Positions 12,477 to 39,216 of a DNA stretch of 41,943 nt are shown piece after piece. The position numbers were made by a program, and so were the translations under genes. The DNA is from Candidatus Gottesmanbacteria bacterium (lineage in GTDB: Bacteria > Patescibacteriota > Microgenomatia > UBA10105 > UBA927), in NCBI GenBank assembly GCA_016199185.1, contig JACQHE010000039.1:1-41943 (forward strand), in the 5' to 3' direction. Each line of letters opens with the position of its first letter. The first letter of the stretch is position 1. A model generated the notes under the pieces. The model was not told the DNA's origin. It ran no database searches and was given only the letters and a program-made list of their open reading frames with translations.

Positions 12477-12494
12477 ATGATACAATGAAGAGTG

Positions 12495-14714
12495 ATGAAA
12501 CTGCCGGACGCCTTTCATCAGTTTCTTCATAAAACCCCGCAGCGCGAAGAGGCGTATCTTTCGCTCGTCCTGCAGGCTGGGGCCGTGCAGGCCGCAGTAT
12601 GGACGCTCTCCTCTGGCAAAAAAGCCCGCATCGGGGAGGCGGCGCATGAACGCGTGGAAAGCGACCCCTCGGGAAGACTCGGGGCAAGCTCCTGGGATAA
12701 ACGGTTGGAAGCATGTGACCGCGCGATTGCAAAGATTGCCCAAAAAGCGCTCCGGGACGATTTTGAAAAAGTGGTGCTGGGCCTTCCCGCCTATTACCTT
12801 ACCCCGGATGACGATATTCATGAAGACTGCCGCGGGCACATCAAGACCCTCACGAGTGAGCTCGAGCTTACCCCCATCGGCTTCGTCCCTATCCACCAGG
12901 CGATCGTCCACCACATCAAGGAAGAAGAGGGCGTGCCGCCCAGCGTCATACTCCTGGAGGTAGGCCCCCAGAACACGACGGTGATCGTTTATAAGGTTGG
13001 GGCCATCGTGGGCCGGGAGCAAATCGCCAATGATGATATCGTGCCGCAACTGGAGCGGACGCTTAAAGGTCTCAAGGAGCTTGAGGTGCTGCCCTCCAGA
13101 GTTCTCCTTTATGGATCGGATGAGACGGCGATAGAAGCGTATAAACGAGACCTCCTCAAACACCCCTGGCCCACGCGGGCGAACTTTCTCCACTACCCCA
13201 AGATCGAGCTTCTGCCAACCCTCGCGCTTGCCGGTGCCGTGTCGCTTGCCGGAGCGAGCGAGCTTGCTGGACAGGTGGGAGAAGCTGCAACTTCTGTCAT
13301 TCCGGCCAAGCCTGCCCCAGCGGAGGCTGGGGAGCCGGAATCCAGAGAAAAAGAAGAAGAGCCTGCCGTTGACCAAAACGTCGTGGAGGTGCCGCCGGAG
13401 ACGCTCGGGTTCCGGCGGGATGTGGATGTTTTGGAAAAACCTCAGGAGGTAACTCCCCCCACCCCACTCTTGAAACAAGAGGGGGAGAAGGGGAAGGGAG
13501 AGGAGATCAGAGAAACGCTTACGCGCTTCATTTCAGGTGTAAAGCTTCCGAGGGTTCGGGCAGTCGCACTTCCTAAAACCGGACTTTTTGTCCTTTTCAT
13601 TGTTGTCTTTCTCATTGGCGCAGGGTGGTGGCTTACCTACTGGGTGCTTCCCAAAGCGAGCATCACCATCCTTCAGCTGCCGCATGTACTTTCCGAATCT
13701 TCTTCTATGACGGTCAATCCTACGGCTACCGTCGTGGACGCTGCAACGAAAACCGTGCCCGGCAGGAAGCAGGAAAAGACGGTAAGCGGCGAGAAAACCA
13801 CAGCCGTCACCGGCCAGAAAGACATCGGTGATCCGGCCCGGGGCACCGTGACGGTCTACAACAAATCGCCCACGAGTAAGCAACTCAAGAAAGGCGCCGT
13901 GCTGACCGCCGGTTCCTTATCCTTCACACTGGATAGCGACGTTTCCATCGCCTCCGCAAGCGAAAGCGTCGGGTCCATCACGTTCGGCAAGGCTAATGCG
14001 GCGATCACCGCCGCTAAACTTGGGTCCCAGAGCAATCTGCCGGCAAGTACGGAGTTTAGCTTGAAAGATACGTCCACGAGCGTCATAGCGGGGAGAAATG
14101 ATGCGGCCCTGACCGGGGGGACGAGCAAGGTGGTGAGGGTTGTTTCCCGGGCAGATCAAAGCGCATTGGTGGACGCGCTAACCGGCGAGCTCATTGACAA
14201 AGCCAAGGGTGAGCTTGAAGCAAGCGTGGGTGGAGCAGAGCGGCTCATCGATGAAACCATCAAAACCACGGTGACGAATAAGAAATTTGATCAAGAGCTG
14301 GACCAGGAGTCCAACGAGCTTCACGGCAGTATCACCGTGACCATCACCGGCATTTCCTACAGTGAAAACGACATTGCATCGCTGTTTGCTGATCTGGTGG
14401 CAGCGAAAGTGCCGGCGGGGTACACGCTTCGGGAGGGTGGGGCACACGTAAAAGCTTTTCAAGTGAAGGTTCAAAAAGACGGAAGCATTACGCTTACTAT
14501 CGAGTACCAAGGTCAGGCGCTGCCAACGTTTGATACGGCTGCCATTGGGTCTGGGCTTGCCGGCAAAACATTTGCCCAGGCGCAGGAAGACATCAAGACG
14601 GTAAGCGGCGTGGGTGGCGTGGAGTTTGGGTCAGTCTCGTGGTCGCTGTGGGGGGGCACCACGTTTCCGGCAAATGCAAAAAACATTACCGTCTCCGTGG
14701 CCGTGCTTGAGTAG
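12495..14714 (+). CDS. large bitopic protein: degenerate actin-fold N-domain, PE-rich linker, LPKTG + TM helix, beta-rich extracytoplasmic domain
   Basis: 739/740 aa (GTG 12492 or ATG 12495). TACAAT at 12481-12486. LPKTG at nt 13569-13583 followed by LFVLFIVVFLIGAGWWLTYWVL. The C-terminal half is rich in S/T/A/G/V. It resembles proteins I recall being annotated baseplate J-like in CPR genomes (weak recollection). Confidence 0.7.
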   Translation: MKLPDAFHQFLHKTPQREEAYLSLVLQAGAVQAAVWTLSSGKKARIGEAAHERVESDPSGRLGASSWDKRLEACDRAIAKIAQKALRDDFEKVVLGLPAYYLTPDDDIHEDCRGHIKTLTSELELTPIGFVPIHQAIVHHIKEEEGVPPSVILLEVGPQNTTVIVYKVGAIVGREQIANDDIVPQLERTLKGLKELEVLPSRVLLYGSDETAIEAYKRDLLKHPWPTRANFLHYPKIELLPTLALAGAVSLAGASELAGQVGEAATSVIPAKPAPAEAGEPESREKEEEPAVDQNVVEVPPETLGFRRDVDVLEKPQEVTPPTPLLKQEGEKGKGEEIRETLTRFISGVKLPRVRAVALPKTGLFVLFIVVFLIGAGWWLTYWVLPKASITILQLPHVLSESSSMTVNPTATVVDAATKTVPGRKQEKTVSGEKTTAVTGQKDIGDPARGTVTVYNKSPTSKQLKKGAVLTAGSLSFTLDSDVSIASASESVGSITFGKANAAITAAKLGSQSNLPASTEFSLKDTSTSVIAGRNDAALTGGTSKVVRVVSRADQSALVDALTGELIDKAKGELEASVGGAERLIDETIKTTVTNKKFDQELDQESNELHGSITVTITGISYSENDIASLFADLVAAKVPAGYTLREGGAHVKAFQVKVQKDGSITLTIEYQGQALPTFDTAAIGSGLAGKTFAQAQEDIKTVSGVGGVEFGSVSWSLWGGTTFPANAKNITVSVAVLE

Positions 14715-36775: not shown

Positions 36776-37368
36776 TGCAAAAACACATTCTTGCCCATTT
36801 CCGCGCCGTTGACCCCGTGCTTTTTTCTTTGGCCCAGACGATTACTTTTGAAGAGCATCCCATTCGCTCTCCCGATCTCTATTTTGTCAGTCTTTGCTCC
36901 GAAATCATCGGCCAGCAGCTGTCCGGCAGGGTAGCAGATGTGTTGTTTGAGCGCTTTGAGAAGCTCTTTTCCCGCAGGCGCGTCACGCCGCGAGGAGTCC
37001 TTAGACTGTCAGAAGAAACGCTTCGCGGGACGGGTATGAGTTGGTCCAAAGCGCGATTCATCCGCGATCTTGCCCAAAAAGTTCTTTCCAAATCCATCCA
37101 ATTAGCCCAATTACCCGATCAAGATGTCATAAAAGAATTAACGAAAGTCAAAGGCATCGGCCCCTGGACGGCGGAGATGTTCCTCATGTTTACCCTGGGG
37201 CGGGAAGACGTATTTTCCTACGGCGACCTGGGCTTACGCAAAGCGATGAAGAAGTTATACGGTTTCAAAAAAGATCCGACGGTCAGGCAAATGGAGCGTA
37301 TCGTCAACAAGTGGAAACCCTACCGTACCTTCGCCGCCCGCATCCTCTGGAAGAGCCTGGAGCTGTAG
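36775..37368 (+). CDS. HhH-GPD family DNA glycosylase (AlkA / 3-methyladenine glycosylase II-like)
   Basis: ATG overlaps the rpsG stop (TAATG); a GTG at 36769 is also possible. HhH-GPD motif VKGIGPWTAEMFLMF with downstream Asp (YGDLGLRKA). Confidence 0.8.
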   Translation: MQKHILAHFRAVDPVLFSLAQTITFEEHPIRSPDLYFVSLCSEIIGQQLSGRVADVLFERFEKLFSRRRVTPRGVLRLSEETLRGTGMSWSKARFIRDLAQKVLSKSIQLAQLPDQDVIKELTKVKGIGPWTAEMFLMFTLGREDVFSYGDLGLRKAMKKLYGFKKDPTVRQMERIVNKWKPYRTFAARILWKSLEL

Positions 37369-37370
37369 GT

Positions 37371-37425
37371 GTTTTTGTCATCCCGGCCGAAGCCTGCCCC
37401 GTACCCCGATACGGGGAGCCGGGAT
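37371..37425. terminator. nested hairpin between convergent genes; family-C element, intergenic copy
   Basis: Outer stem ATCCCGG (37380-86) / CCGGGAT (37419-25). Inner stem CCCCGTA (37397-403) / TACGGGG (37410-16). The 5' part TGTTTTTGTCATCCCGGCC resembles 38841-38862. Confidence 0.5.
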
Positions 37426-37587
37426 CCATTCTTTCTTGCCCCTATTTCCCTTATCTCCCATATATATCCAAAACTTGCTTTTTGCAGAGATATATCCAGA
37501 CGCTTGCGTTGCAGCGCTTACAGACGTTGAAAAGCAGTTAGCCGCTATGGAGGACGCGTAGGTGGATGATGCCTTTGGTTAATCGAT

Positions 37588-39216
37588 TCATCCAAACGTA
37601 AACGCGTAGAGTTCGACGTTTCCGTCGAGGAACTCTAGCTCCAGAAGATGCTCTCCGGCAGCGGGAAGTTCAATGAGTGTATAGAGCTTGTCAGCATCCA
37701 CATTCACGTCTTTGACAAACGTACCGTCCAGGAGCACCCGGATATTTCCTTGCACCCCTTTGGCTTTCGGCCGCATGACGAGAAACACCTCGGCTGCGTC
37801 GAATCGGAAAGACAGCTTGGCGCCAGCCGATGGCATCGCGTACTCCTCTCCCACGGTCCAGGTGCCGGTGGTGGTGATCCGGGAATAATCTCCTCGCAGC
37901 GAACCCAAATATGTCTCCGGTGTTCTGGCCTGGACGCGATACGAAGGATTGTCGACGGGCGTTGCATCAGTAAGCGATCCGGCTTCTTTGAGGAGCTCCT
38001 GGATCTTCATTTCCGTCTCGTCATACTCACCTTCGCCGAAGTGCGTGTAGCGGATCTTCCCGTTTTTGTCGACCAAATATTTGGCCGGCCAGTACCGGTT
38101 GGCGTAGGCGTTCCAGGTGGCGTAGTCATTGTCCTGCATCACCGGGTAGGTGATGCCGAAGTCGGCGATGGCGCGGGCTACGTTGTCCGGATTTTTTTCA
38201 AACTCAAACTCCGGCGTGTGGACTCCGATGATCACGAGTCCCTTGTCTTTATACTTCGCATGCCAACTTTTGAGGTAGGGAAGTGTTCGAATACAATTTA
38301 TGCACGTATATGTCCAAAAGTCTATGAGTACAACTTGTCCTCGAAGACTTTTTATACTCAAAGAATCAGAATTAAACCATTCACCACCAGCGATGAGTTC
38401 CGGTGCAGTTTCCATAGACGACTCCTTTCTTTGTAATTGTTGTAGTGCATTTCGTACGGGCGAGGTATCCTCGAGCTTGGTCAATCCCGTGCCGTAGTTG
38501 GGGAAGCGGTCGATAATGAAGGCTTGAAACTTCCGGTCTACTTGGAGATATATGCCCACAGCGGTAAGGATCATGAGGATGCCGAACGTTTTTTGGATGC
38601 GGCCGGTGTTGGCGACCAGCCACGGATTTTTGGTCAGGAGACTTCTGCCGCCGTAGGTGATGGCAAGAAGCGGGATCGCCGTTCCGGTAGCATACGCAAG
38701 CGTAATGAAGATCGTATCCGTCGTCACCTGACTTGCCGCCGCAAGCGTGATGATGGAAGCCAAGATCGGCCCCACGCAGGGCGTCCACAGGAGCCCCAGG
38801 CTCGTACCCACAAGTAATCCTCCGAGAAAATCTGAATGATTGTTTTTGTTGTCATTCCCGCCTTCTTTTCTGTCATTCCCGCGAAAGCGGGAATCCAGAG
38901 TTTGTGTTATTCGAGAAAGAATTTTTTCCATCATCACCTGAAACGCGGGAACCAGAAGCGATGCCCCAAATCCCGCGATGAGGATGACCGAAAGCGTCCG
39001 TAGCGCGTCAGCCGAAACATTCGTGGCCTTCACGATAGCAGAAAGAAATAGGGTAAAGAAGGTAAAGCTTGCGATAAATCCCATGACCACGCCCCACGGC
39101 CGCTGTTTTCCGCCGGTGACGGAGCCGGTGAGCACAATCGGCAGAATGGGCAGGATGCACGGGGAAAGGATGGTGACGATACCGCCGAGGAACGCAAATA
39201 TGATGAGCAGTGGCAT
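37588..39216 (-). CDS. DipZ-like protein: CcdA/DsbD-type membrane domain fused to TlpA-like thioredoxin and a C-terminal beta-sandwich domain
   Basis: 542 aa. Membrane Cys motifs LSPC and WTPC, thioredoxin motif WTYTCINC, and a C-terminal ~120-aa beta-rich domain as in mycobacterial DipZ (recollection). Confidence 0.85.
   Translation of the reverse strand: MPLLIIFAFLGGIVTILSPCILPILPIVLTGSVTGGKQRPWGVVMGFIASFTFFTLFLSAIVKATNVSADALRTLSVILIAGFGASLLVPAFQVMMEKILSRITQTLDSRFRGNDRKEGGNDNKNNHSDFLGGLLVGTSLGLLWTPCVGPILASIITLAAASQVTTDTIFITLAYATGTAIPLLAITYGGRSLLTKNPWLVANTGRIQKTFGILMILTAVGIYLQVDRKFQAFIIDRFPNYGTGLTKLEDTSPVRNALQQLQRKESSMETAPELIAGGEWFNSDSLSIKSLRGQVVLIDFWTYTCINCIRTLPYLKSWHAKYKDKGLVIIGVHTPEFEFEKNPDNVARAIADFGITYPVMQDNDYATWNAYANRYWPAKYLVDKNGKIRYTHFGEGEYDETEMKIQELLKEAGSLTDATPVDNPSYRVQARTPETYLGSLRGDYSRITTTGTWTVGEEYAMPSAGAKLSFRFDAAEVFLVMRPKAKGVQGNIRVLLDGTFVKDVNVDADKLYTLIELPAAGEHLLELEFLDGNVELYAFTFG
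38841..38898. repeat. family-C palindromic element inserted in-frame inside the DipZ-like CDS
   Basis: GTCATTCCCGC occurs twice (38851, 38872). Hairpin ATTCCCGC-GAAA-GCGGGAAT at 38875-38894. The gene reads it as LDSRFRGNDRKEGGNDNKNNH (aa 107-127). Confidence 0.65.

Follow-up and report, generated by a model that had tools for sequence, protein, structure and literature searches.

The analysed stretch of DNA (the window; 41,943 nucleotides, contig JACQHE010000039.1 of assembly GCA_016199185.1 from a Candidatus Gottesmanbacteria bacterium) carries a palindromic segment at positions 38841–38898, which lies in frame inside a DipZ-like gene (37588–39216, minus strand). This segment is very likely a gene-less copy of the hairpin repeat known as Neisseria Transformation Sequence (NTS) or, in its more divergent forms, as Ssn-related motif (SRM), that is, of the target motif of small single-domain GIY-YIG nucleases of the Ssn type (cd10448), with an Ssn-like nuclease as its probable partner. 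The NTS, CGTCATTCCCGCGMAVGCGGGAATCYRG, encompasses the dRS3 repeat and is the single-stranded DNA (ssDNA) target that is bound and cut by SsnA, a single-domain GIY-YIG nuclease of 94 aa (Nat Commun 2025;16:2388, PMC11893778). SRM, which are more divergent than the NTS, flank ssn homologues across many phyla, and the oriented flanks GTC and the C following the stem are critical for cutting and binding by Ssn (PMC11893778).

Positions 38871–38898 equal the NTS consensus at 27 of 28 positions, and the one mismatch, a T for C at the first base, is allowed by the SRM pattern (H). Both the GTC and the post-stem C are kept in the window element, which furthermore holds the exact dRS3 core ATTCCC-N8-GGGAAT. 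Scanning of the genome (G000; 625 kb in 57 contigs, 51% GC, 87% complete) with the published SRM pattern resulted in 18 matches, namely the window site and 17 others, against none for the reversed control pattern. At least 120 contigs from numerous phyla contain the exact 27-mer; its sources among the matches listed comprise Proteobacteria, Chloroflexota, Planctomycetota, Nitrospirota, Acidobacteriota, several lineages of the candidate phyla radiation (CPR) and others. Open reading frames (ORFs) that run across the 27-mer in these contigs read VIPAKAGIQ, SFPRKRES and CHSRESGNP, which fits the original prediction made from the window sequence, where VIPAKAGIQ had been recognised as a recurrent repeat-derived peptide. 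The paper describing the motif was found by a literature search with the DNA strings of the repeat; a literature search with the peptide strings gave no match.

On the plus strand, the segment at 38841–38898 reads tgtttttgttGTCATTCCCGCcttcttttctGTCATTCCCGCgaaaGCGGGAATCCAG in the window sequence, and its earlier description, including a duplicated GTCATTCCCGC and a GAAA hairpin, was right in every checkable detail. The full hairpin TGTCATTCCCGCGAAAGCGGGAATCCAG (38871–38898, plus strand) is antisense to dipZ and consists of the stem ATTCCCGC/GCGGGAAT, the loop GAAA and the flanks GTC and CCAG; it is translated as LDSRFRGND. It is preceded on the same strand by a 5′ half copy (38851–38870, translated as RKEGGND), which is made up of GTCATTCCCGC and the pyrimidine-rich spacer cttcttttc (38862–38870) and shows a 21-bp period, with exact occurrences of GTCATTCCCGC at 38851 and 38872. 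The T/G-rich leader gattgtttttgtt (38838–38850, plus strand, translated as NKNN(H)) represents the usual 5′ flank of the repeat family, which in the 27 genomic copies shows a T at position −1 in 93% and at position −2 in 70%, and the 3′ flank agtttgtgt (38899–38907, plus strand, translated as (T)QT) is T-rich as in other copies. The 25-mer GTCATTCCCGCGAAAGCGGGAATCC has a single occurrence in the window and is absent from all 100 shuffles. As ssDNA, either strand of 38871–38898 is predicted to fold into an 8-bp stem with a tetraloop at −11.3 kcal/mol (z about −4, and −4.4 for the strand with the GAAA loop), and none of 200 shuffles was equally stable. The combination of a half copy, a pyrimidine-rich spacer of 8–11 nt and a full NTS is also found in other phyla (loci L016, L068, L078, L108, L113 and L114), with a triple in L068. 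Since this layout recurs in unrelated genomes, it appears to be a trait of the repeat family and not a peculiarity of DipZ.

A relaxed hairpin scan of the genome yielded 29 hairpins, about 27 after dropping a contig-end overlap, so that the motif is, as foreseen, not unique to this locus. The family takes the form GTC-AT[T/C]CC[C/G]GC-loop-GC[C/G]GG[A/G]AT-CCAG, and its stems differ by compensatory changes (ATTCCCGC, ATCCCCGC, ATTCCGGC, ATCCCGGC and ATCCTCGG). Inverted doublets are present on contigs C25, C38, C51, C53 and C57, and nested versions of the hairpin occur as well.

Because the genome encodes an Ssn-like nuclease bounded by inverted SRM-like hairpins, and because relatives possess NTS–ssn–NTS units containing the same NTS, the partner of the window repeat is probably an Ssn-like nuclease. 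Five small GIY-YIG ORFs are found in the genome, one of which (C12:14223–14510, 96 aa) matches the Pfam family GIY-YIG at 7.9e-15. Its product matches, at 1e-19, that of the GIY-YIG gene on the gammaproteobacterial contig L050, which has the exact NTS immediately ahead of its start codon and, past the stop codon, a variant NTS in inverted orientation. The C12 gene itself is bounded by inverted hairpins of a longer SRM-like variant, GTCATTGCGAG...GCAATC. Within the same CPR family, the Ssn-like genes G024:C102 and G036:C15 are flanked on both sides by NTS of the GTCATTCCCGC/GTCATCCCCGC type, and in genomes G003 and G010 an NTS of this type directly adjoins the Ssn-like gene. Among 87 species genomes of the order, 47 contain the hairpin and 44 a strong Ssn-like match; the NTS is present in 33 of the 44 genomes with such a match versus 14 of the 43 without (odds ratio 6.2, p = 1e-4, a statistic that ignores phylogeny). 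Searches of NCBIfam and of PDB sequences with the small GIY-YIG proteins returned weak generic matches only.

Several points weigh against the assignment to an Ssn system. The C12 gene is flanked by the different, longer SRM variant and not by the GTCATTCCCGC type, in an assembly that is 87% complete and often broken at copies of this repeat. Moreover, 14 genomes harbor the NTS without a strong Ssn match, and the association between NTS and Ssn takes no account of phylogeny. Finally, the link between the Ssn-like protein of this genome and the window NTS is one of sequence and runs via the L050 gene rather than via SsnA of N. meningitidis. Beside these points, we observed that the C12 gene and its bounding hairpins form a unit of about 377 bp (C12:14186–14562, L133/L142), a 92%-identical copy of which is present in genome G050; this unit looks like a minimal cassette. 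The other four GIY-YIG ORFs (83–90 aa; C5:10438–10650, C43:232–441, C43:874–1095 and C21:131–343) are more distant from the Ssn-like protein and are located directly beside tRNA genes (tRNA-Asn, a tRNA-Phe/Gly/Gln cluster and tRNA-Val).

The host gene of the window repeat encodes a DipZ-like protein of 542 aa composed of a CcdA/DsbD membrane domain, a thioredoxin-fold domain and a C-terminal domain, with domain matches to DsbD_TM, Redoxin/AhpC-TSA and Thioredoxin_10. Its best homologues are annotated as DipZ in Gottesmanbacteria/Patescibacteria. The gene is intact, and since the window protein keeps every invariant alignment column, C20, C147, C305 and C308 among them, dipZ looks functional. 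As expected from the ORF translation given with the original prediction, the gene reads through the repeat as LDSRFRGNDRKEGGNDNKNNH (aa 107–127), between transmembrane helices TM3 and TM4 and between the LSPC (C20) and WTPC (C147) motifs. When aligned to 120 DipZ homologues, 114 of them proved to be without the segment and to possess a short loop instead (typically ...SRLTSFVPSQTPSATRSDF...), among them the closest one, P0002, at 75% identity; LDSRxRGND stands at the same place in the remaining six, i.e. the window protein, P0005, P0007, P0008, P0079 and P0071, and the loop of P0007 contains an extra nested extension of 13 residues. AlphaFold2 modelling of the window protein with 86 homologues (mean pLDDT 86) predicts that TM3 and an amphipathic helix reach up to residue 111, that residues 112–127 form a low-confidence coil (pLDDT 55–62) flanked by confidently modelled helices, and that TM4 starts at residue 128. 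The linker between TM3 and TM4 would be cytoplasmic, judging from CcdA, whose topology is that of a 3+3 inverted repeat, from the extracytoplasmic position of the thioredoxin domain and from the positive-inside rule, with basic residues in loops of the same side. The alignment thus bears out the proposal that, compared with most DipZ homologues, the segment has been inserted, and indicates that it kept the frame and is located in a tolerant linker. A region-restricted protein search for further insert-carrying DipZ proteins revealed no new carriers. The DNA pattern of an NTS upstream of WTPC gave 53 matches across the collection, 52 of which were chance pairings in NTS-rich genomes; the sole true match is the dipZ gene of genome G036.

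Orientation and frame of the element agree among all six carriers. This could be due to selection for a hydrophilic basic loop, to a target preference of the element, or to exchange of the loop by recombination. The DipZ tree requires four state changes for the six carriers, at least three of which, whether gains or losses, are imposed by branches with good support: P0079 has the insert-free P0116 as its sister (97/94 support), and P0003 and P0004, both without the insert, form a group with the window protein (92/96 support). P0005, P0007 and P0008 may form one clade (approximately unbiased (AU) test, p = 0.33). Uniting these three with the window protein costs 28.8 log-likelihood units at an AU p-value of 0.068, so that a single origin for the four closest carriers is not firmly rejected. 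Both states occur within one GTDB genus, where G035 is without the insert and G036 and G038 possess it. Since the insert-free loops across the clade share ...PSATRSDF, the insert-free state looks ancestral and not like a secondary loss. Comparison of the filled site of P0079 with the empty sites of P0074 and P0116 reveals a clean insertion of about 36 nt, comprising the hairpin and A-rich flanks, in an A-rich stretch.

The hairpin has persisted at this site to a degree that the surrounding synonymous positions have not. Four-fold degenerate sites are only 34–53% identical between carriers and thus saturated, whereas the 23 fixed core positions of the element (CTGG, both stem arms and GAC) are identical at 23 of 23 in the window, L001, L003 and L005 and at 21 of 23 in L002. 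The bases of the hairpin loop vary between carriers and read TTTC, CTTC, CCGC or CTAC or are replaced by a nested insert of 43 nt. Because conservation extends to third codon positions within the stems, these comparisons indicate that the constraint acts on the DNA and not on the peptide. The copy in DipZ furthermore bears the commonest loop of its own genome, which is GAAA in G000 and GAAG in G036. The persistence of the hairpin would reflect either selection on recognition by Ssn or homogenisation from other copies.

The insertion in dipZ is one of several in coding sequence. About 11 of the 27 genomic copies are in frame inside genes, six of them in five genes recognisable by Pfam and five in three long ORFs (486–1080 aa), which are membrane-protein-like, have no Pfam match and are called as genes by length alone. 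The element is stop-free in five of its six frames, and the in-gene copies use all five, in line with the earlier suggestion that it colonises coding sequence without breaking the frame. In-frame copies are located in the IF-2 gene, between domain II and the IF-2 domain, in a ComF-like phosphoribosyltransferase gene and in a MiaB-like radical-SAM gene (C14:16616–16722, equal to C28:3–67). The latter contains, in frame throughout (VIPAPPSVIPAPPSVIPAEAGIQSLHDRFRVKPGMT), three tandem 5′ half copies with a 21-bp period and a complete hairpin with an inverted counterpart; contigs C14 and C28 overlap at this repeat. The window itself holds a nested in-frame copy at 13296–13345 (plus strand, translated as VIPAKPAPAEAGEPES) in the acidic hypervariable linker of a conserved 741-aa ORF (12489–14711) with a weak Baseplate_J-like match; this copy is absent from 13 orthologues of the same family. 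The kind of element is already known (NTS/SRM with Ssn, 2025), and the searchable literature gave us no account of NTS/SRM copies that colonise the coding sequences of CPR bacteria. Three observations appear to go beyond the published account (PMC11893778): the in-gene fraction of about 11 of 27, the recurrence of the element at one site of DipZ, and the fact that the hairpin persists at the level of DNA.

The element might instead be a repetitive extragenic palindrome (REP) or its doublet form (REPIN), mobilised by a REP-associated tyrosine transposase (RAYT) of the IS200 superfamily. There are three Y1_Tnp proteins in the genome, two RAYT-like and one IS200-like, the inverted doublets of the hairpin resemble REPINs, and one NTS is located 45 nt downstream of the IS200-like element on C18. 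Both systems indeed share short hairpin repeats, inverted doublets, vertical persistence at orthologous sites and a single-copy enzyme gene flanked by the repeat. However, the two RAYT-like genes (C40:17848–18656 and C46:5030–5805) are bracketed by other palindromes, AGCCTCGAAGGGTGAGACCCTTCGAGGCT and GTCCACCTGGCAGGTGGAC, respectively, and the IS200-like copy has left- and right-end hairpins of its own. The window repeat lacks a GTAG head, its probable partner is a GIY-YIG nuclease and not an HUH tyrosine transposase, exact conservation across phyla is untypical of REPs, and the motif has already been tied to Ssn by experiment (PMC11893778). We consequently rejected RAYT as the partner, since the RAYT-like genes of this genome carry other palindromes, and regard a REP origin as improbable. 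A third copy of the C40 palindrome AGCCTCGAAGGGTGAGACCCTTCGAGGCT lies inside the RAYT-like ORF. Also rejected was an autonomous transposon between two inverted NTS; the NTS pairs of L013 and L046 enclose ordinary genes (SMC and a heterodisulfide-reductase-like gene).

It is similarly doubtful, and if anything slightly more so, that the insert has been recruited for a host function in DipZ, either as an mRNA hairpin at which translation would pause between the membrane halves, or as a loop peptide needed for activity or partner binding. Such a function would agree with the fact that six DipZ proteins share site, orientation and frame of the insert, and with conservation of the hairpin despite saturated synonymous sites. 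Yet about 95% of the close homologues, including that of the same-genus species G035, do without the insert, and identical hairpins are present in unrelated genes and in spacers. The loop bases, and with them the middle residue, vary freely (F, L, P or the 13-residue nested insert), and what is conserved is the DNA palindrome, down to third codon positions, rather than the peptide.

We also considered an intrinsic transcription terminator or attenuator that merely happens to be present in many copies, for which the stable GC-rich hairpin, the T-rich flanks and the many copies at gene ends could be taken as signs. A consensus terminator scan, however, called none at 37377–37429 or 38871–38898, ATCCAG stands between the stem and the T-rich tail, and copies are found inside essential genes such as that of IF-2. 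No Rfam family matched anywhere in the window at the gathering threshold, nor did any reach E ≤ 1 across 37300–39000, and a terminator accordingly seems very unlikely. An assembly artefact, i.e. a repeat-induced chimera or collapsed read in this metagenome-assembled genome, can practically be dismissed: NTS copies often stand at contig ends (C14/C28, C45 and C54) and hence do disturb assembly, but the frame is unbroken across the segment, the contig runs on for kilobases on both sides, and the same dipZ loop insertion is present in independent assemblies from other samples (ENA, NCBI and Logan).

Compared with the described NTS/SRM–Ssn system, the window repeat and its relatives agree in the near-identical sequence (27 of 28 positions), the critical flanks, the multi-copy hairpin and the co-occurrence with repeat-flanked small GIY-YIG genes. 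They differ in their CPR host and in that about 40% of the copies are in frame inside genes, whereas 2% of the NTS are inside genes in N. meningitidis (PMC11893778). Half-copy arrays and nested variants are common here, and a longer variant stands on either side of the Ssn-like gene of this genome. With the Neisseria dRS3/NIME repeats, the window element shares the exact dRS3 core; dRS3 has been described as an intergenic repeat and phage integration target in Neisseria (PMC11893778), whereas the present copies reside in a distant phylum and in coding sequence.

The original prediction had likened the segment to Rickettsia palindromic elements (RPE). This comparison is apt for its behaviour, as RPE are likewise palindromic repeats in frame in coding genes that are translated as an extra loop and do not destroy the protein, but not for its family, for which the NTS/SRM hairpin of the Ssn system fits better. 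RPE measure roughly 100–150 bp and the unit here 27–67 bp, and the sequence families of RPE are not known to be related to this repeat. A relation of SRM and RPE is possible, given that Rickettsia is listed among the SRM-rich genera (PMC11893778) and that a Rickettsia endosymbiont of Polydrusus tereticollis (L042, 5736–5852) contains an exact NTS inverted doublet.

A further, nested member of the family is located at 37377–37429 (plus strand) in the spacer on which the HhH-GPD gene and dipZ converge, 9 nt past the HhH-GPD stop codon. It consists of the outer stem ATCCCGGC/GCCGGGAT and an inner hairpin beginning with GCCTGCCCC. A related copy with a nested hairpin had been proposed for this spacer at 37371–37425 and is real, with slightly shifted boundaries; its proposed role as a bidirectional terminator found no support, as the terminator scan called none and neither strand has a T run immediately after the stem. 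In L001, an NTS occupies the equivalent place after the HhH-GPD gene. Loci L001, L002 and L003 possess a flavodoxin gene between dipZ and HhH-GPD, which is absent from the window (37369–37587), where the spacer holds the nested NTS; in L001, an NTS overlaps the last codons of the flavodoxin gene. The genome additionally harbors a second repeat family of composite palindromes of 70–100 bp with GTCAT...ATGAC ends and internal ...ATCTAG/CTAGAT... hairpins, whose layout is that of NTS inverted doublets (C1:25090, C10:9515, C15:716 and 2124, C24:216, C31:2921, C39:12612, C40:7076, C44:5334, C46:1279 and C52:25542).

Returning to the NTS/SRM hairpin in dipZ, we propose the following course of events. 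The unit is composed of a T-rich leader, in some copies a 5′ half copy, then GTC, a stem of 8 bp with its tetraloop, CCAG and finally a tail rich in T. It would have landed antisense in the stretch that links both three-helix halves of the membrane domain of DipZ. As it did so in one of its five stop-free frames, the gene would have stayed intact and the repeat would be translated as a hydrophilic, basic and disordered loop of about 21 residues. What is copied and maintained is the DNA hairpin, and the loop peptide would be its passenger. By analogy to REP and RAYT, the likeliest route of spread would be trans-mobilisation or copying at ssDNA by an Ssn-type cassette. We tentatively extend this to a broader proposal, which is possible though we would not yet count on it: the NTS/SRM hairpins of CPR bacteria may be gene-less satellites of a minimal mobile system whose sole protein is an Ssn-type GIY-YIG nuclease of about 90 residues. 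They would be inserted or copied at ssDNA, with a preference for the same A-rich codons of the dipZ linker, and would be kept intact by selection on recognition by the nuclease and not on the peptide.

If this satellite proposal is true, the coding sequences of streamlined genomes would bear a second layer of constraint, one of DNA structure. For annotation, segments of this kind are best masked as repeat-derived loops in protein alignment or modelling. Irrespective of that proposal, the element explains the "junk" peptides that recur in hypothetical as well as real proteins of many uncultured bacteria (VIPAKAGIQ, SFPRKRES, LDSRFRGND and WIPAFAGMT) as translations of one DNA hairpin. A perfect palindrome in orthologous in-gene copies amid saturated synonymous sites offers a natural experiment on selection of the NTS hairpin. 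For the biology of these organisms, the finding extends the Ssn/NTS system to CPR bacteria, in the compact genomes of which genes are not spared by the repeats, which stand in frame in the linkers of essential proteins.

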